Below, in pieces: positions 50,271 to 59,480 of a stretch of 64,000 nucleotides of DNA. Position 1 is the stretch's first letter; the number at the start of each line of letters is the position of its first letter. Under the pieces are notes generated by a model. It saw only the letters and a list, made by a program, of their open reading frames with translations, was not told the DNA's origin and did not search any database. The stretch lies in the NCBI GenBank assembly GCA_029560465.1, contig JAKQKX010000069.1:77021-141020 (forward strand), written 5' to 3'. The translations under genes and the position numbers were made by a program. This stretch comes from Candidatus Omnitrophota bacterium (GTDB taxonomy: Bacteria; Omnitrophota; Gorgyraeia; Zapsychrales; JANLHA01).

Positions 50271-50645
50271 TTGGGCATCAAGAAGGTCCGGCAAATACTG
50301 AAATCGTTCGCAGACGATACGCGGCTGCGAATTATTAATTTATTAAACCAGCAGGAAGAACTGAGCGTGAGCGAACTGTGCCTGATTCTGGACGTTAACC
50401 AGTCCAGCCTTTCTAAGCACTTGGGCCGGCTAAGGTTAACAGGGATTGTGAATGACCGGCGAGAGGGGATGAGTGTTTATTATTCTCTTGTTAAACCTAA
50501 AGAAAAAGCCCACAGGGAGCTTTTGAACGCGATCACATCTGGCCTTGCCGAGTCACAAGCCTTTATCCGTGACTCCCTGAAATTAAAAGAAATTTATGGC
50601 CATAAGAAATCAAAGCCAAAGCGTGTTGGACGTGTTGGTGATTAA
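50271..50645 (+). CDS. ArsR/SmtB family transcriptional regulator
   Basis: RLRIINLL...LSVSELCLILDVNQSSLSKHLGRLRLTGIV wHTH; TTG start uncertain. Confidence 0.65.
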   Translation: MGIKKVRQILKSFADDTRLRIINLLNQQEELSVSELCLILDVNQSSLSKHLGRLRLTGIVNDRREGMSVYYSLVKPKEKAHRELLNAITSGLAESQAFIRDSLKLKEIYGHKKSKPKRVGRVGD

Positions 50646-50788
50646 ACATCGGAATATCGGGGTGCCCCAGCACGGGTTACTAAGGAAGGGGGTGGACAAG
50701 GATATATTAACCAATCGTTTTAGATAAGATTTCAAATGAAGAATATTTATTAAGGAGCTGTTGCGCTCCACAATGAGCGGAGGAAGAA

Positions 50789-51151
50789 ATGAAAAAAGTA
50801 TTCATGACCCTTGGAGCGGCCCTTCTTACAGGGGTCGTAATGATTAACACGAGCGCGGTCTACGCTCAGGAAGACGATGTGGAGGAATATTCCTGGGGAA
50901 CCGTCGCGGAGATCTCCGGTGACCAGATTGTTATTGTTGAATATAATTATGAAACGGAAGAAGAACAGAATGAAACATACCTGATCGCCCCGGATGTCGA
51001 GTTGTTGGGAATCAGCGCGTTAAGCGAGATCAAGGTCGGAGATGCCGTCGAATTCCGGTATGCGGTGCAGGGCGGTAAGAAGGTTGTCTTGGCGATCGGT
51101 TTGGATAAGTCCGTTATGGAAGAAAGCCCTGCCGACGTCTTTAGCGAATAA
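50789..51151 (+). CDS. Small secreted acidic hypothetical protein
   Basis: Signal peptide MKKVFMTLGAALLTGVVMINTSAVYA; GGAGG Shine-Dalgarno. Confidence 0.45.
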   Translation: MKKVFMTLGAALLTGVVMINTSAVYAQEDDVEEYSWGTVAEISGDQIVIVEYNYETEEEQNETYLIAPDVELLGISALSEIKVGDAVEFRYAVQGGKKVVLAIGLDKSVMEESPADVFSE

Positions 51152-51190
51152 TCTATATAAGGATTTTTTAAGATTAGTGTTGAGGAGATT

Positions 51191-51532
51191 ATGAACTTAG
51201 AACCTAATAAACTCTATATAGGAAATTTGGGTTACGACGTGACAGATGATGACCTGACCGTGTTCCTGGAGCATAACGGAATTAATGTCCAGGCGTGCCA
51301 GGTCGTTATTGATAAAAATTTGGACCGGTCCAAAGGGTTCGCATTCGTAGAAGTGGCGTCTGCGGACGACCTTCGGAATGCGATCGAGAACGTGAACGGC
51401 AAAGAATTAAATGGCCGGGCCGTAAAAATTAATCAGGCCAGAGAGCGAAGGGAAAAAGAGGATAGCTCGTCCAAGCCGCATAGAAAAGGAAAACGCGGTC
51501 GGTTCCGAGACGAGTATGATGAGAATTATTAA
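51191..51532 (+). CDS. RNA-binding protein with RRM domain
   Basis: RNP2 LYIGNL and RNP1 KGFAFVEV; basic C-terminal tail. Confidence 0.75.
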   Translation: MNLEPNKLYIGNLGYDVTDDDLTVFLEHNGINVQACQVVIDKNLDRSKGFAFVEVASADDLRNAIENVNGKELNGRAVKINQARERREKEDSSSKPHRKGKRGRFRDEYDENY

Positions 51533-51680
51533 GCCCGCGTGATGCCTTTTGTGTGGGATATCAGGAGAAAAAGAGAGATATGAGCCGAAAGACGTTCGTA
51601 TCTCTTTTTTTATCCTTTTCGTTTCTGTCCGAGCCTTTTGTAGACCAGGGGATTGCGCTTTGTGGAGGAGGTGAGATAGG

Positions 51681-52265
51681 ATGGGAAAAATCTTTATGGC
51701 TTTTATTCCTATTTGCGTTGCCGTGGACGCTTTGGGAGTTTTGCCGATTTATATTTCTTTAACCCAGGGGATGGATAAGAAAATTCAAAATAAGATTATC
51801 CGTCAGTCCATCCTGACTGCTTCTTTGTTAGCGTTTGGATTTATTTTTTTGGGTAAATTTATTTTCCGGATTTTGGGGATTACGATCGCTGATTTTATGA
51901 TCGCTGGAGGACTGATCCTGTTTTGTATCGCTTTATTAGATATTTTGAAACCCGGGAAACAAAGGCGTTATCCTCCCGATGATGTGGGGGCGGTTCCGAT
52001 CGGGACCCCGTTGATTACCGGGCCGGCTGTCCTGACGACATCGCTGGTTATGATGGATCAGTATGGATGGCTGGCCACTGTGTTCGCGGTTCTGGCCAAC
52101 GTCATTCTGGCGGGATGCGCTTTTTACAGCGCGGATTTTTTAGTCCAGCGATTGGGATTAACCGGCATCAGGGCCTTTTCCAAAGTCATGGCTTTATTGT
52201 TAGCCGCCATCGCGGTTGAGATGATCCGCAAGGGCGTCCTGCAAGTTTTTCCATGTAATGTATAA
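51681..52265 (+). CDS. MarC family (UPF0056) integral membrane protein
   Basis: N-terminal FIPICVAVDALGVLPIYISLT block and six TM helices. Confidence 0.65.
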   Translation: MGKIFMAFIPICVAVDALGVLPIYISLTQGMDKKIQNKIIRQSILTASLLAFGFIFLGKFIFRILGITIADFMIAGGLILFCIALLDILKPGKQRRYPPDDVGAVPIGTPLITGPAVLTTSLVMMDQYGWLATVFAVLANVILAGCAFYSADFLVQRLGLTGIRAFSKVMALLLAAIAVEMIRKGVLQVFPCNV

Positions 52266-52426: not shown

Positions 52427-55400
52427 ATGCCCATGCCCGATTCCTTCTTCAATACGCTGAAAGTTTTATTCCAATCTTTTAGGGAACCCCCTATCAAACA
52501 TATCTGTTCTCTTGAAGCCGCTTACCAGAAAACGTTGGGCCCTTTTAATCCTGACACTTTAAGTGTCCTGCACACGCGCAGACGGGCGGAAAGGGCGTAC
52601 AAACGTTTGCGCTCTTATATTGTGTCTCTTCAACGCCATGCCCCGGCGGGGGCCACGCAAGGGCAGCGTATCCTCCGGGCGTATTTGGAGCGTATTGACG
52701 CGATCCATGGGGACGTGCGCCGCTGGGGCGCGTTGTCCTGTGACCTGCGGTGGCCCGAGGAGGGCCGTCTCCCTGGGGTTAAAACAAAGGACCGGATTGC
52801 TTTCCGGGAGCGCCTGGCTTCGGAGGCCAGGGAATTATGGGATGAGCTTCGGGCGCGGGTGCAAGGGGGCACATGGCCGCGACCCCGGGAACGGGACATT
52901 TATCTTCTTAAGCAACGGTTGGGACGGATGGAGGTGAATGACGGGGCTTGGCGGGGCGTGTTCCAGCAATTGTGCCTTTTGGTGGACCGGCATGTGCGTT
53001 TTGTTTTCATGGACGCACGATACGCCATGCGGCACCGTTTCCAAATCACCCTGGCGCAGGAATCCTTGTTGTCAGACCCCGGAGATTTCTTTGTGAAATC
53101 TGGGAAGGCGGGGGCAGGTGGGGCGGAGGGGAAGAAGCGGCTTATGCTTTTGGAAGATTGGGTGCACGGGTATTATCCCCCTTGGGCGCATATTCAGGCG
53201 GTGTACCAGCGCTGCGTGAGTCCGGTGATTAAATTTTTAGAGCGTTGCGAAGGGAAGCGGGTACGCGTTATTATGGCCGTTGGATTCCTTCTGGTCTTGG
53301 TGTTTGGCTCCGGGGTTTTTGTCCTCCGGCAGACCGACGCGGATAATCGTATGTGGCGGGTCATGGTTTTTGAAATCAAGAAATTAATCCGTTCCGATCC
53401 GGAATCCCTGGCGGATCAGGAAAAGAAGAAGTACTTTCGCGACCAGATCGCCCGGATTGATGAAATGTATTCTCCAGATCAAATCCGCGCCCATATCGAG
53501 GAGTTTTACGGCAGGGAACTCTATCGTACGCAGGAAGGGTTCCTTTTTTTCTGCAGGAATATTCTTAAAGGATTTTTTATGCTCTTGGCGGAATGGAAGG
53601 CCGATGACCAGCTGAAACAGGACGTCGTGGACGCGGCTTTTTATCTGGATGGACGTATCGCGGGGGCCGTTGCGCATATCATCGCTCTTTATGAACAGCC
53701 CATGATCCGTGAAGGGGAGCTCCGGGGGGAGATCCTGCGGATGCGCCGGGCCTTTGTCTCCTACAATGTTTTTCCGTTTACGTTTATTATCCTCGAAGAT
53801 GATGTCCCGTATCTTTTTCTGTTCTCCGAGACGGTGATAAAAAAGTACGTGCTGGCCAAAGAGGCGTTTGAAAGAATGCATCTGGATGGGAATTTGTATT
53901 CCGGCGCCGCTCTCTGGCCGGGGGTGGCTTATATTGTGGAAGGGGAAGAATACCCTTTTACGGACCGGTCCGGGTATTTTGAAGGAGAATTTGCCGTCAT
54001 ATTCCGGCGTTTTGCCCCAGAGGTGTTATGGACGGTTTATCATGAGGTCGGGCACGTGATCGATCATTTGCGTTTTCTCTTTGAAAGGAAACCCTACCCG
54101 GCTAACGTTGAATTGCATTCCATGTTGGCGCCTGTCATGTGGGCGGAAGACCGGAAGGCTTATGTGGCCCGGCGCTTGGCAGACGAAGCGGAAAAAGGGG
54201 ATGAGTTTGATAATTATTCCCAGGCGGCGAAAGGGCTTTTAAACGGGATGTTCATTTATCTGTCCGAACAAAATCCGCGCATTCGGGGCCCGTTGATTTC
54301 CAACCGGTTTGAGAAGGAACGCATCCGGCGGATAGTTGAGCTCGTCGGAGACATGGACCCGGAAGCATTGCATGAGGCGGCGTACGCATTTTATCGGCAG
54401 CCGCAGAAGTATTTGTCAACGGCGGAACCCGGCCGTTATGTGGCGTACCTTCAGAATTATCAGGAGGTCATCGCGGGAACGGATCATAAGGTCGCCCAGA
54501 GGGGTTTTATCCTGGGGGGAGGAGGTTGGGTCGGCCCGCGCAGTGGACCGCGGCTCATTTTTGACGGGGCCGACGACAATAGCCTTGGGAATGATTTTCA
54601 TTTATGGCTTTTCCTGAGAAACGCTGTTAGTCTTATTTTCTACCCGTCCCAAAACTTGCCTCAAGCCACGAGCGCGGAGTCGATCGTGGCATCGGTTATG
54701 GTTTTTGTTCTCTTTAACCTGACGGCTTTGATGATTCATGCCTTGGCCGCCCCTTACCGGAAGAAGATGTTTTCCGGATACGCGTTGGAGAGACGGGTTG
54801 ACCGTATCTATGACCATAATCCTTGGTCCCGCGGAATCAGTTACGGCGCGGAACTGCGGGAAAGGAAATTGTTGAAAAAAATTTTTTCGCCCAGAGGGCC
54901 ACTTGATCCGCAGATTAAAAAAGACATTCTTGCGTTTAAGTCAACCGCGCATGAACGGGAACGCGTGGTTTTTGATATTTGCCTTTTCCTGGCGCCGTTG
55001 AATCCGCGTCAGTCCGCCATCATAAATAAGGCGCATGACCTTTTGTTTTTTCTCCCTTTTTTAGGCCCGTATTTAGGCCGGTCACCCTGGCTCTGGCCGG
55101 TGCAGAGGCGGTTCCATCAGAGGGAACGTTATAATGAGCGGATCGAAATTTTGCTTTCAGGGATCGGCAAGGAACAATTGACTGTGGAGATGTTGCCTCT
55201 TGCCCTTCGCGGTTTGTTGCGTGAATTCGAGCTCCCCGTAAGTGCGGCTGCGGGACGGGGCTTTTTAAATGTTGCCGATATGTTTATTCGGCTTCGGTCC
55301 ATGGTGTTGGAGTCTCTTTTGAGGGAATCTCCGGTGACGCACATGAATTTTGATTTTATCCGGGATAAAATGCCAGAGAACCATGAGACCAGCGTTGAGT

Positions 55401-56008
55401 TTGACCGGATTGATGAGTATATGCCGGGTGACGATATCCGCCATATCGATTGGAAGGCCACGGCCCGGTACGCAACCGCGATGCCCATGGTGAGGCGGTT
55501 CAGTAATCCTTACGGGGTGCGTGTGGCCCTCTGGCTCGATATGCGTTTTTTGGAGGAAGAGGAGGGGCGCCGGCGCTGGGCCTTGGACTTTGCGCGGTCT
55601 ATCAGAATGTTCCATTTATTTCGGTCGGAAACCATATGCGAGCAGCTCATCCTGGTCGGGTCCGGCGGCCACTTGGAAGAGATCCCTGTCTTTCTTTCCG
55701 CCGAGAAGGAATGTTTGTCCTTGGCGGTGAAAATATTCGAAACGATAAAACAGAAGTATGAGGAGACATGTTCCCGGCAGATGGCCTTGGACTTGGAGGG
55801 TTTGGTTTTTTACACGGAAGAGGAGAACCGGTTTTTTTTGCGGCAAGCCGGGTTATCGGATTTTCTTCGGGGCGGCGCGGCGCAGGAGATCCGCCGGACG
55901 CCTCTTCGCGAAAAAAAAATGAATATTTTCGTGGTCGGTGCTAAGATGAGTGAAAAAAATATGATCGAAACTCTTGCCGGAGAAAAGAATAAGGTCTTTT
56001 ACTGGTAA
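52427..56008 (+). CDS. Giant (1193 aa) protein: Arg-rich N-domain, one TM, HExxH zincin-like region, C-terminal DUF58-like domain
   Basis: HEVGHVIDH at about aa 540; C-terminal YMPGDDIRHIDWKATARYATAMPMVRRF matches the DUF58 signature (xPGDxxRxIDWKxxAR); directly upstream of MoxR. Confidence 0.55.
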   Translation: MPMPDSFFNTLKVLFQSFREPPIKHICSLEAAYQKTLGPFNPDTLSVLHTRRRAERAYKRLRSYIVSLQRHAPAGATQGQRILRAYLERIDAIHGDVRRWGALSCDLRWPEEGRLPGVKTKDRIAFRERLASEARELWDELRARVQGGTWPRPRERDIYLLKQRLGRMEVNDGAWRGVFQQLCLLVDRHVRFVFMDARYAMRHRFQITLAQESLLSDPGDFFVKSGKAGAGGAEGKKRLMLLEDWVHGYYPPWAHIQAVYQRCVSPVIKFLERCEGKRVRVIMAVGFLLVLVFGSGVFVLRQTDADNRMWRVMVFEIKKLIRSDPESLADQEKKKYFRDQIARIDEMYSPDQIRAHIEEFYGRELYRTQEGFLFFCRNILKGFFMLLAEWKADDQLKQDVVDAAFYLDGRIAGAVAHIIALYEQPMIREGELRGEILRMRRAFVSYNVFPFTFIILEDDVPYLFLFSETVIKKYVLAKEAFERMHLDGNLYSGAALWPGVAYIVEGEEYPFTDRSGYFEGEFAVIFRRFAPEVLWTVYHEVGHVIDHLRFLFERKPYPANVELHSMLAPVMWAEDRKAYVARRLADEAEKGDEFDNYSQAAKGLLNGMFIYLSEQNPRIRGPLISNRFEKERIRRIVELVGDMDPEALHEAAYAFYRQPQKYLSTAEPGRYVAYLQNYQEVIAGTDHKVAQRGFILGGGGWVGPRSGPRLIFDGADDNSLGNDFHLWLFLRNAVSLIFYPSQNLPQATSAESIVASVMVFVLFNLTALMIHALAAPYRKKMFSGYALERRVDRIYDHNPWSRGISYGAELRERKLLKKIFSPRGPLDPQIKKDILAFKSTAHERERVVFDICLFLAPLNPRQSAIINKAHDLLFFLPFLGPYLGRSPWLWPVQRRFHQRERYNERIEILLSGIGKEQLTVEMLPLALRGLLREFELPVSAAAGRGFLNVADMFIRLRSMVLESLLRESPVTHMNFDFIRDKMPENHETSVEFDRIDEYMPGDDIRHIDWKATARYATAMPMVRRFSNPYGVRVALWLDMRFLEEEEGRRRWALDFARSIRMFHLFRSETICEQLILVGSGGHLEEIPVFLSAEKECLSLAVKIFETIKQKYEETCSRQMALDLEGLVFYTEEENRFFLRQAGLSDFLRGGAAQEIRRTPLREKKMNIFVVGAKMSEKNMIETLAGEKNKVFYW

Positions 56009-56029
56009 TATTTAGGGAGAAGAGAGGAT

Positions 56030-57025
56030 ATGGACGATGTCATGATGAAGAAGCTCGAGGAGGAGATCAAGAACGCCTGTTTCACTCTGGAGGGGTTCTT
56101 TCGTGAAATTGAAAACGTGATGATTGGGCAGACGTATCTTATTGAACGGATTCTTTTGGGCCTGCTGGCCGGAGGGCATATCCTGATCGAAGGGTTGCCT
56201 GGGCTGGCGAAGACGCTGGCGGTTAAGACTTTCGCCATGGCGGTGCGGTTAAATTTCAGCCGGATTCAGTTTACGCCTGATATGCTTCCAGCCGACTTGA
56301 CCGGCTCTCCGGTCTATGACCAGCGTTCAGCGTCTTTTTATATCAAAAAGGGCCCTGTTTTTGCCAACATTGTGTTGGCGGACGAAATTAACCGCGCGCC
56401 GGCGAAAGTGCAAAGCGCTTTGCTGGAGGCGATGCAGGAGAAGCAGGTCACCATCGGGGATGCCTCATATGCCTTGGAAGAACCCTTCCTTGTTCTGGCG
56501 ACCCAGAACATGATCGAGCAGGACGGCACTTACGCTTTGCCGGAGTCGCAGTTGGACCGTTTTATGCTGAAAGTCAATATGACCTATCCGTCCCGTGAGG
56601 AAGAAGCCCTGATCCTTCAGCGGATGTCGTATACGGATGTGAAGTATGATGTGAAGCAGGTCCTTAATCCCGAGCATGTCCTGAAACTCCGCGCTTTGGT
56701 GGACAGGGTCCATATTGAGAAAAAAGTCGAGAATTATATCCTAGATATTGTTGAGGCGACCCGTCAGCCTGATAAATTCGGGCTTAATGATTTGGTGGAT
56801 TTGATTAAATATGGTGTTTCCCCTCGGGCGGGGATCCACCTTTCCGTGGCGGCGAGAGCGTATGCCTTGATACAGGGACGCGCGTATGTCCGGCCCCAGG
56901 ATATCCGGGTGCTGGCCCGGGACGTTTTGAGCCACCGGCTCATTGAGAGTTATCAGGCCCGGGGGCTTAACGTTACCGCCGAAGAACTGGTCGACCGGAT
57001 TGTTAACGGCGTGGAAATGCCTTAG
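56030..57025 (+). CDS. MoxR-family AAA+ ATPase
   Basis: Walker A GLPGLAKT, Walker B/sensor LADEINRAPAKVQSALLEAMQE, arginine-finger region. Confidence 0.85.
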   Translation: MDDVMMKKLEEEIKNACFTLEGFFREIENVMIGQTYLIERILLGLLAGGHILIEGLPGLAKTLAVKTFAMAVRLNFSRIQFTPDMLPADLTGSPVYDQRSASFYIKKGPVFANIVLADEINRAPAKVQSALLEAMQEKQVTIGDASYALEEPFLVLATQNMIEQDGTYALPESQLDRFMLKVNMTYPSREEEALILQRMSYTDVKYDVKQVLNPEHVLKLRALVDRVHIEKKVENYILDIVEATRQPDKFGLNDLVDLIKYGVSPRAGIHLSVAARAYALIQGRAYVRPQDIRVLARDVLSHRLIESYQARGLNVTAEELVDRIVNGVEMP

Positions 57026-57031
57026 GCCCTC

Positions 57032-58363
57032 ATGAAAACAGCCGTGAAAAAATGTTTTTCCCCGGAGCTATGTGTGGCCGATGCCGGCGGGCGGATTTTT
57101 AACGTCCCTTTTTTGTCCGCTGTGGGCATGAAGGCCGGATTTTACGACGTCCTGCGCCCGGCTCAACTGATCAAGATGCCCTTCGGCAGTCAGTTATTCA
57201 TGCTGCCGGGCCGCACGCCGGTCGGGTTTGCCTCTTCCGACAATCAGCTGGTTTCCCTGGACCGGAATCCTTTCTCCGTGTCCCCGGAGCCGTGTTTTGC
57301 GGTTGCCGCTTTTGTGGCCCCGGGATATACGTCAACATATAATGCCGCCTACACTGAAATTAACGGGGCGAGGATATTGCCTTTGTTTGCGTATACGGCG
57401 GTGGCCTTTTACAGGGGAGAATTTTATGTGGCCAGTACCCGTGTTGACCGGGAGCTGAGGCAGGATATCCGGTTTATGGATATGAACCGGATTAAGCGGA
57501 ATATAAAAATTTTTCGGAAACAATTCCCCACAAATAGGCTGGTCGCGCATCTGGAGTCCTGTGCTCTGGTGAACCAGTGCCCTGCGGCCAAGAATTTTTT
57601 CCTGCAGAGGTATGAAGGGCCGCTCCCGACCTCTCCGTCCTGTAACGCCAGGTGCGCCGGGTGTCTTTCCCTGCAGCCCGAGGGCGCCTGCCCGGCGACA
57701 CAGCCCCGCATCCGTTTTATCCCCACGCCGGAGGAGATCGCTGAAGTCGCGCTTTATCACCTCGCGGTGGTGGCAGACCCAGTCGTGAGTTTCGGCCAGG
57801 GCTGCGAAGGGGAGCCGCTTTTAGCCGGGAACGCCATCGAAAAAGCGGTGAAATTGATCCGGGCCAGGACCCGGAAAGGGATGATTAATATTAACACCAA
57901 TGCCAGCAAACCGGACGTGGTGGCGCGTCTTTGGGACGCGGGGATGGACAGTATCCGGGTGAGTCTAAACAGCCTTCAGCCTGATAGCTACCGGCGGTAT
58001 TACCGTCCCAAGGGATATACATTTTCTGACGTGATGAAGTCTATCCGGGTGGTGAAACAGAAGGGCGGGTTTGTTTCCGTGAATTATCTGTCTCTCCCGG
58101 GGTTTACCGATTCCCGTGCGGAAGTTGAGGCGTTCCGGAAATTTTTAGACGGAGGGCGCGTTGACATGATCCAGTGGCGAAACCTGAATTATGATCCGCG
58201 GGCGTATTTCCGTTTGCTGAAGTCCTGTCCGGATGTGAAGGACCTGCTGGGTATTAAGAATTTGATTGATCTGGTTAAGAGGGATTACCCGCGCGTCATG
58301 GCCGGGTATTTTAATCCGTCCCGCCGGAGAATCAGGCGATTCCGGCCGGAAAGTTTTAAATAA
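57032..58363 (+). CDS. Radical SAM domain protein with an ~170-aa N-terminal extension
   Basis: SCNARCAGC (Cx3Cx2C) and the GQGCEGEPLL glycine-rich SAM-binding motif. Confidence 0.6.
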   Translation: MKTAVKKCFSPELCVADAGGRIFNVPFLSAVGMKAGFYDVLRPAQLIKMPFGSQLFMLPGRTPVGFASSDNQLVSLDRNPFSVSPEPCFAVAAFVAPGYTSTYNAAYTEINGARILPLFAYTAVAFYRGEFYVASTRVDRELRQDIRFMDMNRIKRNIKIFRKQFPTNRLVAHLESCALVNQCPAAKNFFLQRYEGPLPTSPSCNARCAGCLSLQPEGACPATQPRIRFIPTPEEIAEVALYHLAVVADPVVSFGQGCEGEPLLAGNAIEKAVKLIRARTRKGMININTNASKPDVVARLWDAGMDSIRVSLNSLQPDSYRRYYRPKGYTFSDVMKSIRVVKQKGGFVSVNYLSLPGFTDSRAEVEAFRKFLDGGRVDMIQWRNLNYDPRAYFRLLKSCPDVKDLLGIKNLIDLVKRDYPRVMAGYFNPSRRRIRRFRPESFK

Positions 58364-58406
58364 TAAGCGGTGTTTCCGTTTGTCTGGGGCGCCGGCAAGG
58401 AGGGGG

Positions 58407-59480
58407 ATGGTGACGAGCCGTGTTTATTATGAAAAGGTGGATCAGGCCGATTCTTCTGAAGTTATTCAACAGAGATTTCGGCGGTTGCTTGATGCCAGCG
58501 GGATCCTTGTCCAGGTGAAGCCCCGAGACCAGGTCGTGATGAAGCTTCATTTCGGGGAAGCAGGGAACACGGGATTTATCAAGCCGGAATGGGTCCGGGT
58601 GATTTCCCAAAAGATCAAGGAGCGGCAGGCGGTTCCCGTGATGGCCGAAACCAACACGCTTTATCGCGGGCAGAGAACCAATTCTAAGGATCATCTGGCC
58701 TTGGCGGCCCGGCACGGGTTCACCCTGGAAAAGGCCGGGGCCGGCATCATTATCCCCGAAGACAGCCCGGACAATGTTATGGATGTTTCTGTTGAACAGC
58801 CGTACATTAAAGTAGCCAAAGTTATAAAATTGTTCTTGGAGGCGGATGTCCTGGTGTCTTTGGCCCATTTTAAGGGGCATTTGATGACGGGGTTTGGCGG
58901 GGCTTTAAAGAATATCGGCATGGGTTGCGCTTCCCGTGAAGGAAAACTCGCCCAGCATGGAGGGGTGGCGCCTTTTGTTGATGAGGGTCGGTGTGTTGGA
59001 TGCGGGGAATGCGCAGTGGTTTGCCCGGCGGACGCGATCGCCCTGGAGCAGAAGAGGGCTTTTATTGACGGTGAGCTTTGCATCGGTTGCGCCAGCTGTA
59101 TCGCCGCCTGTCCGCAGGAGGCGATTGACGTTCCTTGGGAGGCCGGGGGAGAAACCATTCAGGAAAAGATGGTGGAGTATGCTAAAGCGGTGCTTGATGC
59201 CCGGCAGGGGAAGACGGTCTTTGTTAATTTCGCAGTCAAAATCACAAAAGAATGTGATTGCCTGGCCAAAGATGATCCACGGATTTGTCCGGATATTGGT
59301 CTTTTCGCGTCTTTAGACCCGGTGAGCGTGGACAAGGCTTGTTATGATCAAGTGATGGCGGCCTCTGGGAGGGATGTTTTACGGGAAGCCCACCCGCACT
59401 GTGATGGGATGAAACAGCTGCTGTACGCTCAACGATTAGGGTTGGGGCGGATGGATTACACGTTGATCTTGGTTGAATAG
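58407..59480 (+). CDS. DUF362-domain protein with 2x[4Fe-4S] ferredoxin insert
   Basis: CVGCGECAVVCP and CIGCASCIAACP motifs; DUF362-like flanks; GGAGGGGG Shine-Dalgarno before the ATG at 58407. Tool ORF start at 58266 overlaps the upstream gene. Confidence 0.6.
   Translation: MVTSRVYYEKVDQADSSEVIQQRFRRLLDASGILVQVKPRDQVVMKLHFGEAGNTGFIKPEWVRVISQKIKERQAVPVMAETNTLYRGQRTNSKDHLALAARHGFTLEKAGAGIIIPEDSPDNVMDVSVEQPYIKVAKVIKLFLEADVLVSLAHFKGHLMTGFGGALKNIGMGCASREGKLAQHGGVAPFVDEGRCVGCGECAVVCPADAIALEQKRAFIDGELCIGCASCIAACPQEAIDVPWEAGGETIQEKMVEYAKAVLDARQGKTVFVNFAVKITKECDCLAKDDPRICPDIGLFASLDPVSVDKACYDQVMAASGRDVLREAHPHCDGMKQLLYAQRLGLGRMDYTLILVE

Follow-up and report, generated by a model that had tools for sequence, protein, structure and literature searches.

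A two-gene unit of Candidatus Omnitrophota pairs a MoxR ATPase with a membrane protein that carries a probable zincin-like domain and a DUF58 domain

What kind of partner is a 1193-residue protein, with an HExxH motif in its middle and a DUF58 domain at its end, for the MoxR-type AAA+ ATPase encoded directly behind it? This question is raised by a 64,000-nucleotide stretch of a Candidatus Omnitrophota genome (assembly GCA_029560465.1, contig JAKQKX010000069.1, positions 77,021 to 141,020; hereafter the window). The initial annotation of the window, made from the sequence alone, had singled out the large open reading frame (ORF) with its HEVGHVIDH string next to MoxR, and had described the arrangement as an inverted MoxR module. 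The ORF is present as described, with the string at residues 539–547, MoxR starts 21 nucleotides downstream of it, and the large-protein-first order recurs in 10 of 12 genomic contexts. We conclude that the conserved unit is a two-gene pair of Candidatus Omnitrophota, the large gene followed by the MoxR gene. The module varies the known MoxR–vWA/DUF58 theme; what is new is a previously undescribed zincin-like domain, which a membrane protein combines with DUF58 and which also occurs in midasin-like giant proteins.

The ATPase of the window matches Pfam AAA_3 over the entire profile (131/131 positions, 208 bits, E 5.2e-62) and also AAA_lid_2 (66.7 bits, 1.5e-18) and bpMoxR (1.5e-11), and its Walker A (GLPGLAKT) and Walker B (VLADE) motifs are intact. 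The gap between the two genes contains a GGAG-type ribosome-binding site and no terminator-like site, and the MoxR gene is probably co-transcribed with the large gene; promoter and terminator scans did not rise beyond shuffled expectation. MoxR lies directly downstream of the large gene in the window, L001–L004, L007, L089/L090, L091, L094, and L095. L001–L004 are close relatives of the window locus, and the identity of the large protein to that of the window is 33% in L007, 41% in L089/L090, 34% in L091, 38% in L094, and 31% in L095. Where measured (L001–L004, L007, L089/L090, and L091), the MoxR orthologues are 63–90% identical to the window MoxR, and in L094 and L095 the large gene is followed by AAA_3 genes of 331 and 327 residues, respectively. 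All neighbours other than MoxR vary between the contexts. In L095 (6001–10439), we note, opposite-strand genes flank the large gene and MoxR on both sides, leaving these two as a unit of their own.

A word-indexed protein search returned only five close relatives of the large protein, and an exhaustive HMMER search of 1.84 billion cluster representatives returned 92 proteins, including ~24 full-length relatives of 1130–1224 residues with 23–74% identity to the window protein. Twenty-four representatives, which share less than 50% mutual identity and come from many samples, all follow a common plan: an N-terminal helical domain of ~250 residues, a first hydrophobic helix, a “mid” region of ~440 residues, a second hydrophobic helix, a “post” domain of ~180 residues, and a DUF58 region of ~230 residues. 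The taxonomically named records all belong to Candidatus Omnitrophota except for one metagenome-assembled genome (MAG) labelled Planctomycetales, and, as far as records carry names, the zincin-like domain family is apparently confined to Omnitrophota. Could errors of assembly or gene calling have joined unrelated genes into the large ORF, and could its adjacency to MoxR be a coincidence? Some NCBI gene calls of family members would fit such an artefact, as certain Omnitrophota MAGs carry only a 342-residue “DUF58 domain-containing protein” that spans the C-terminal DUF58 part (P0099/P0100 as compared with P0024). This 342-residue form clusters at 90% identity with the 1162-residue full-length form and, therefore, public gene calls sometimes truncate the gene. 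The uninterrupted architecture recurs in all 24 representatives, two family records are closed chromosomes of ~3.3 Mb, all four segments are conserved, and the pairing with MoxR recurs amid otherwise different neighbours. This recurrent intact architecture and the recurrent MoxR pairing exclude an artefact, which we consider to have practically no chance of being the explanation.

Based on the curated Pfam score, the C-terminus of the large protein is a DUF58 domain, as the initial annotation had claimed. Specifically, residues 997–1039, which include YMPGDDIRHIDWKATAR at residues 998–1014, match DUF58 (PF01882) with 30.9 bits against a gathering cut-off of 23.4, covering profile positions 4–44 of ~216, and this match exceeds the cut-off in 23 of the 24 members (best E 1.9e-10). 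A metagenome locus scan with the family alignment picked up the generic DUF58 motif, and all the genes that it returned (L009–L088) were ordinary DUF58 genes; we reused them as the DUF58 reference set. With hhalign, the family aligned to 73 ordinary DUF58 proteins with 99.1% probability (E 1.4e-18), over only 77 columns (residues 979–1057), and a hidden Markov model (HMM) of ordinary DUF58 proteins aligned to residues 987–1107; an NCBIfam scan of the large protein recognised nothing. Pfam places DUF58 in the vWA-like clan. The DxSxS motif of the metal-ion-dependent adhesion site (MIDAS) is degenerate in the C-terminal domain of the large protein, which has D-M-R-x-L instead.

By our estimate, a few percent of proteins this long would contain one HExxH by chance and, therefore, the evidence for a functional site rests on its conservation. 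Conservation was counted in the 70 sequences that match an HMM of the mid domain, with the sequences covering each position as denominators. In relatives down to ~20% identity, H539, E540, and H543 are each present in 63/63 sequences, followed by N560 in 61/62 and E562 in 62/62; also conserved are P569 (62/63), Y579 (61/63), Y597 (64/64), and G520 (63/64). The motif reads HExxH-x16-N-x-E, with 18 residues from the second His to the Glu, which is itself embedded in N-[VI]-E-[LV] and lies 19 residues past that His. Upstream, the strand motif G516-x-F-E-G520 is conserved, in the invariant form G-[YF]-F-[ED]-G, ~20 residues before HExxH. The initial annotation had made its proposal dependent on conservation of the HExxH residues among homologues and had proposed to look for a downstream Glu; both are found. 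In the structural models, HExxH sits in helix 533–553. An AlphaFold model of the domain by itself (residues 321–670; 37-sequence alignment) has a predicted local distance difference test score (pLDDT) of 92.7 and a predicted template modelling score (pTM) of 0.89 and consists of a helical subdomain and a beta-sheet, followed by the HExxH helix and a helix starting at E562. In this model, E562, a candidate third metal ligand, lies at the N-terminal end of helix 563–572, and a mixed beta-sheet packs on the active-site helix as in a zincin fold. Together, motif and model suggest that the HExxH domain is probably zincin-like and of gluzincin type, with putative metal binding and proteolysis. The invariance of E540 argues for catalysis, since a merely metal-binding site would not need this residue.

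Judged by sequence comparison, the zincin-like domain belongs to no described family. None of the 24 members matched a Pfam peptidase family, PDB sequence and profile searches with three alignments gave nothing significant, and a homologue search with an alignment of the zincin domain only returned just two close fragments. One sub-threshold PDB match (E ~1) was obtained, in which the domain profile aligns weakly to the M3 oligopeptidase A, exactly on HEFGH...N-I-E...P. Dipeptidyl peptidase III (DPP III; MEROPS M49; the HEXXH-type bacterial enzymes 5zum and 5yfb) is among the closest known systems. We rejected membership of M49, as the second motif EEX(R/K)A(E/D) is absent and the spacing differs: in CoDPP III, E417EAKAD begins 29 residues after H388, whereas in the window family the Glu is found 19 residues after the second His. 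Moreover, the 24 members gave no Pfam hit to M49 at E <= 1, and PDB profile searches returned no DPP III chain at E <= 10. M1 aminopeptidases have the same spacing as the window domain (HEXXHX18E; PMC2241622), and its G-[YF]-F-[ED]-G strand motif lies roughly where M1 has GXMEN; the combination of HEXXH-X18-E, GXMEN, and a profile match that defines M1 membership was not found.

The initial annotation described one transmembrane segment; this was incorrect, as two strongly hydrophobic helices, both kept in 24/24 full-length relatives, bracket the HExxH domain. We counted Lys and Arg in the 15 residues beside each helix and summed them over the 24 members: there are 120 on the N-terminal and 55 on the C-terminal side of helix 1, and 34 on the N-terminal and 101 on the C-terminal side of helix 2, while acidic residues beside the helices have the opposite bias. 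Because of the positive-inside rule, these counts predict that the N-terminal domain and the “post” and DUF58 domains are cytoplasmic, like MoxR, and that the zincin-like domain lies outside. The linker ahead of helix 2 (residues 670–745) is Gly-rich and modelled with low confidence (pLDDT < 50). Some ordinary DUF58 proteins are likewise membrane-anchored by an N-terminal hydrophobic stretch, and in the longer ones this single stretch comprises 40–50 residues and is compatible with a helical hairpin; the family could have arisen by insertion of a zincin domain into the external loop of a membrane-anchored DUF58 protein.

Little else in the large protein resembles described families. When the complete protein, five fragments of it, and the 24 relatives were scanned against Pfam, NCBIfam, and PADLOC, DUF58 alone was matched, neither the large protein nor MoxR matched the anti-phage defence models of PADLOC, and the full-length AlphaFold model (mean pLDDT 79.5) gave zero Foldseek matches in the PDB at E <= 0.001. 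The N-terminal domain contains 30 Arg within its first 200 residues and is modelled as all-helical, in agreement with the Arg-rich N-terminus noted initially. Since the closest homologues start with MPDSF, translation may begin at 52433, where the second ATG lies. The “post” domain has no match to any Pfam family; an HMM built from it matches 34 sequences, and H870, F874, P877, G880, P881, R885, Q893, and F896 are invariant. We note that NKAHDLLFFLPFLGPYLGR in this domain (window 55025–55081) is hydrophobic and extremely conserved, surpassed within the family only by the DUF58 signature; it could serve as a surface that contacts the membrane or MoxR. The C-terminal ...FYW was considered as a strict C-terminal docking tail and rejected, as up to ~15 residues follow it in many members.

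How does this protein relate to the partners that MoxR is known to have? MRP-type operons of the Bat (aerotolerance-like) kind (MoxR, DUF58, the vWA proteins BatA/BatB, and tetratricopeptide repeat (TPR) proteins; in mycobacteria, moxR1–Rv1480–Rv1481) likewise place an AAA_3-type MoxR beside DUF58, but their usual order is MoxR followed by DUF58 (PMC12067865, PMC5700661), whereas in the window pair DUF58 comes first. An ordinary DUF58 protein has ~290 residues and that of the window is ~4 times larger, adding the N-terminal helical domain, a 350-residue zincin-like domain, and the conserved “post” domain; in addition, a Pfam scan found no BatA, BatB, or TPR genes adjacent to the pair in the window. 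MRP-type MoxR operons are tied to the cell envelope (PMC5700661, PMC12067865): among the products of Bat-type operons are inner-membrane proteins with domains that face the periplasm, and a related operon gives envelope defects when mutated (PMC5700661).

The mid domain with its intact motif is also present in ~40 much larger proteins, 28 of which exceed 1250 residues and which reach up to 7593 residues. The named giants are all from Omnitrophota and annotated as “AAA family ATPase” or “hypothetical”. In six AAA_5-type giants scanned with Pfam, we found HEAT repeats, several AAA_5 modules, a midasin-type lid (AAA_lid_7), and a methyltransferase, and in the three giants whose region beyond the mid domain gave a match, a VWA domain follows ~110–160 residues after it. 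A jackhmmer search from MoxR left the AAA_5 modules of the giants undetected; an HMM seeded from Pfam-defined AAA_5 segments detected them. In 24 of the 28 giants, an AAA_5 module ends 47–145 residues upstream of the mid domain, and most of these proteins have three detectable modules; in P0060, the sole detected module lies 764 residues upstream. The remaining three giants have no AAA_5 module: P0059 starts within the mid domain, and P0036 and P0037 are enlarged versions of the window architecture. Thus, two independent links connect a MoxR-clade AAA+ motor with a zincin-like and a vWA-type domain, namely fusion in the giants and gene adjacency in the window family, and this is the strongest argument that MoxR, DUF58, and the HExxH domain work together. 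The giants are like midasin/Rea1 in having at least three detectable AAA_5 modules, an AAA_lid_7 match, and a C-terminal VWA domain, whereas the window protein itself lacks an AAA module; we are not aware that midasin has an HExxH domain separating its ring from its MIDAS domain. The papers on Omnitrophota giant genes that we searched make no mention of DUF58, MoxR, or HExxH. Among individual giants, P0050 (4492 residues) has HEAT/Arm repeats over ~500 residues, several AAA_5 modules together with the zincin-like domain, and a methyltransferase domain at its C-terminus; in several others, one N-terminal hydrophobic helix is present. Enlarged versions of the window architecture with long extra inserts and without an AAA module are represented by P0036, P0037, P0067, P0078, and P0080 (1664–2963 residues), which combine the N-terminal, “post”, and DUF58 domains, not all three in each; P0036 and P0037 also have the zincin domain.

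Based on these observations, our working model is that the large protein is an inner-membrane protein that would hold a gluzincin-like domain of ~350 residues between two membrane helices, and that the MoxR hexamer would engage the vWA-related DUF58 domain, as MoxR-class ATPases do with vWA partners. ATP-driven pulling or twisting would then act on DUF58, the force would pass through the “post” domain and helix 2 and open or activate the zincin domain, and the latter would cut peptides or unfolded polypeptides within the envelope of the cell. We assign this mechanism a probability of roughly 0.45; the physical contact between MoxR and DUF58, the direction of control, and a protease or remodelling function of the module are what we infer. 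NorQ–NorD, CbbQ–CbbO, RavA–ViaA, and the Mg-chelatase pair BchI–BchD share the underlying logic of an AAA+ hexamer acting via a vWA-type adaptor. In the NorQ–NorD structure, a finger of the vWA domain reaches into the AAA+ pore, and force from the ATPase remodels a linker N-terminal to the vWA domain (PMC13036017); the zincin domain occupies this linker position both in the window protein and in the giants. The systems differ in that the client of NorQ–NorD-type pairs is a separate enzyme and their partner a canonical VWA protein with MIDAS, whereas here the partner is DUF58 and the putative effector is on the vWA-related polypeptide, predicted to lie across the membrane. Weighing against our model are that MoxR is not adjacent to the large gene in L008 and L096 (2 of the 12 contexts), that the full-length model has a pTM of 0.57, making its domain arrangement unreliable, and that the mid domain of the giants lacks flanking membrane helices and has AAA_5 directly ahead. 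Because no membrane helix separates AAA_5 from the domain in these proteins, it is cytoplasmic there, which conflicts with its extracytoplasmic placement in the window family.

This conflict is the starting point for one alternative, in which the HExxH domain is cytoplasmic in the window family as well and part of an ATP-dependent protease resembling FtsH, with MoxR and DUF58 delivering or unfolding substrates and the helices merely serving as anchors. The 24 giants with AAA_5 directly ahead and no intervening membrane helix imply a shared, ATP-containing compartment, and the nearest structural or sub-threshold sequence relatives of the domain are DPP III and the M3 oligopeptidases, which are cytosolic peptidases of short or unfolded peptides. 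FtsH is likewise a membrane-anchored AAA+ protein with HExxH, having two membrane helices and an M41 zincin, but its classical-clade AAA module and its peptidase are on one cytoplasmic chain without vWA. In contrast, the window pair has a separate MoxR ATPase, DUF58 as coupling domain, and the zincin between the helices; the large protein is not itself an FtsH-type AAA protease, as it has neither an AAA module nor a Peptidase_M41 match. Given two helices with Kyte–Doolittle means of 2.3–2.7 that flank the domain in 24/24 members and clear positive-inside counts on both, and considering that, if the zincin were cytoplasmic, two spans would leave DUF58 on the other side of the membrane from MoxR, we regard this alternative as quite improbable.

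In a second alternative, MoxR and DUF58 might act once, as a chaperone for metal insertion into, or folding of, the HExxH domain, which would then work alone as a peptidase; NorQ/NorD and CoxD serve their targets in this way. Consistent with this, MoxR-class ATPases with vWA partners are best known for metal insertion and maturation (PMC13036017; see also PMC3471820). An invariant metal-type site in the partner protein and the conserved pairing also speak for a chaperone, but if the predicted topology is right, the metal site and the ATPase are on opposite sides of the membrane. Moreover, zincins normally take up Zn without a chaperone, and the multi-module AAA_5 permanently fused in the giants looks like an operating partner rather than a one-time factor, so that we consider a chaperone role unlikely. 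Alternatively, the HExxH domain might be a non-peptidase sensor or linker that binds metal or peptides and is remodelled mechanically by MoxR for signalling or for assembly of an envelope complex, an analogue being the linker that connects the AAA ring of midasin to its MIDAS domain. Inactive zincin-like domains usually lose the catalytic Glu, whereas E540 is invariant in 63/63 sequences, and Y579, Y597, and the G-x-F-E-G strand motif are also kept; a sensor or linker is, therefore, rather improbable in our opinion.

The model of ATP-controlled proteolysis matters because DUF58 is a very common partner of MoxR whose role is still unknown according to a 2025 review (PMC12067865). The targets of MoxR–vWA machines are known in only a few cases, and a likely effector fused to DUF58 provides a concrete, testable output for a MoxR–DUF58 pair, while the presence of the zincin domain between AAA_5 motors and VWA offers an initial clue to the function of one class of the very large proteins that are typical of Omnitrophota. 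If both proteolysis and its control by ATP are true, the module would be a new architecture among the few energy-dependent proteases. A broader reading, which we put forward as doubtful, is that the HExxH-x16-NxE domain founds a new metallopeptidase family that works only with motors of the MoxR/midasin AAA+ clade and a vWA-type coupling domain. In that case, the giants would represent a novel type of ATP-dependent protease, with a midasin-like ring as its base, and in the window pair ATP hydrolysis by cytoplasmic MoxR on DUF58 would mechanically switch on an envelope peptidase. Such a trans-membrane machine would be comparable in principle to the control of cell-wall hydrolases by FtsEX, with unrelated parts, and could be linked to the proposed cell-surface or predatory lifestyle of Omnitrophota.

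Table 1 Positions of the two genes and of the segments of the large protein in the window
Feature	Position	Strand	Basis or remark
Gene for the 1193-residue protein (N-terminal domain, membrane helix, zincin-like domain, membrane helix, “post” domain, DUF58)	52427..56008	+	ORF list and translation
N-terminal Arg-rich all-helical domain (residues 1–250), predicted cytoplasmic	52427..53176	+	Conserved DWxxGYYP at residues 244–251
Hydrophobic helix 1 (residues ~281–299), predicted membrane span	53267..53323	+	Kyte–Doolittle 19-residue mean 2.69; kept in 24/24 members
Zincin-like domain (residues 321–670), predicted extracytoplasmic here	53387..54436	+	Helical subdomain, beta-sheet, HExxH helix, Glu helix
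Putative metal/catalytic motif	54041..54112	+	H539-E540-x-x-H543, 16 residues, N560-x-E562
Hydrophobic helix 2 (residues ~752–770), predicted membrane span	54680..54736	+	Kyte–Doolittle mean 2.34; kept in 24/24 members
“Post” helical domain (residues 780–960), predicted cytoplasmic	54764..55306	+	Contains NKAHDLLFFLPFLGPYLGR (residues 867–885)
C-terminal DUF58 domain (residues 979–1193)	55361..56005	+	Pfam match at residues 997–1039
MoxR-type AAA+ ATPase, 331 residues	56030..57025	+	Pfam AAA_3, AAA_lid_2, bpMoxR

The 5' part of the large gene differs in composition from its surroundings. Bases 52500–53100 have a GC content of 0.58–0.64 as compared with 0.49 for the window, confirming the GC-rich stretch that the initial annotation had reported and had taken to hint at a separate evolutionary origin. 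This second step did not hold. In residues 61–200, GC at codon positions 1, 2, and 3 is 0.70, 0.48, and 0.67, respectively, while in the rest of the gene these values are 0.53–0.62, 0.33–0.40, and 0.57–0.64, and GC at the third position is 0.65 in both the MoxR gene and the radical SAM gene that follows it. The excess is at positions 1 and 2 with an ordinary third position and, therefore, results from the Arg/Ala/Gly composition of the encoded domain. Based on these values and on the presence of the N-terminal domain in all 24 family members, we rejected a foreign origin of this part. Shadow ORFs of 89–124 residues inside the Arg/Ala/Gly-rich part (52563–52937, + strand; 52630–52899, − strand; 52948–53232, + strand) look like the usual by-product of a GC-rich coding stretch and not like genes.

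Upstream of the pair, at 50271–52265 on the + strand, lie genes for an ArsR-type helix-turn-helix regulator, a 120-residue protein without a Pfam match, an RRM-domain RNA-binding protein, which is uncommon in bacteria, and a MarC membrane protein; these genes are syntenic in L002 and not in more distant relatives. In L007 (1393–4880), where the large gene encodes the relative P0011 (33% identity), genes for a 550-residue VWA protein and a CARDB/CLIPPER-domain protein lie directly upstream of it, which recalls the vWA genes of Bat-type operons; a VWA gene in this position was found in L007 only. Downstream of MoxR, the window encodes a radical SAM enzyme and then a DUF362/ferredoxin protein. 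Both were considered as parts of the module and rejected, as they follow MoxR only in close relatives. The radical SAM protein (57032–58363, + strand) has an N-terminal extension of ~190 residues without a Pfam match, and in L001 (14690–15997) an extra 435-residue gene without a Pfam match lies between MoxR and the radical SAM gene. The ORF with DUF362 and two 4Fe-4S motifs (58266–59480, + strand), if read from TTG at 58266, shares ~100 nucleotides with the end of the radical SAM gene; its orthologues in L001 and L002 have 356–357 residues, which makes the ATG near 58407 the probable start.

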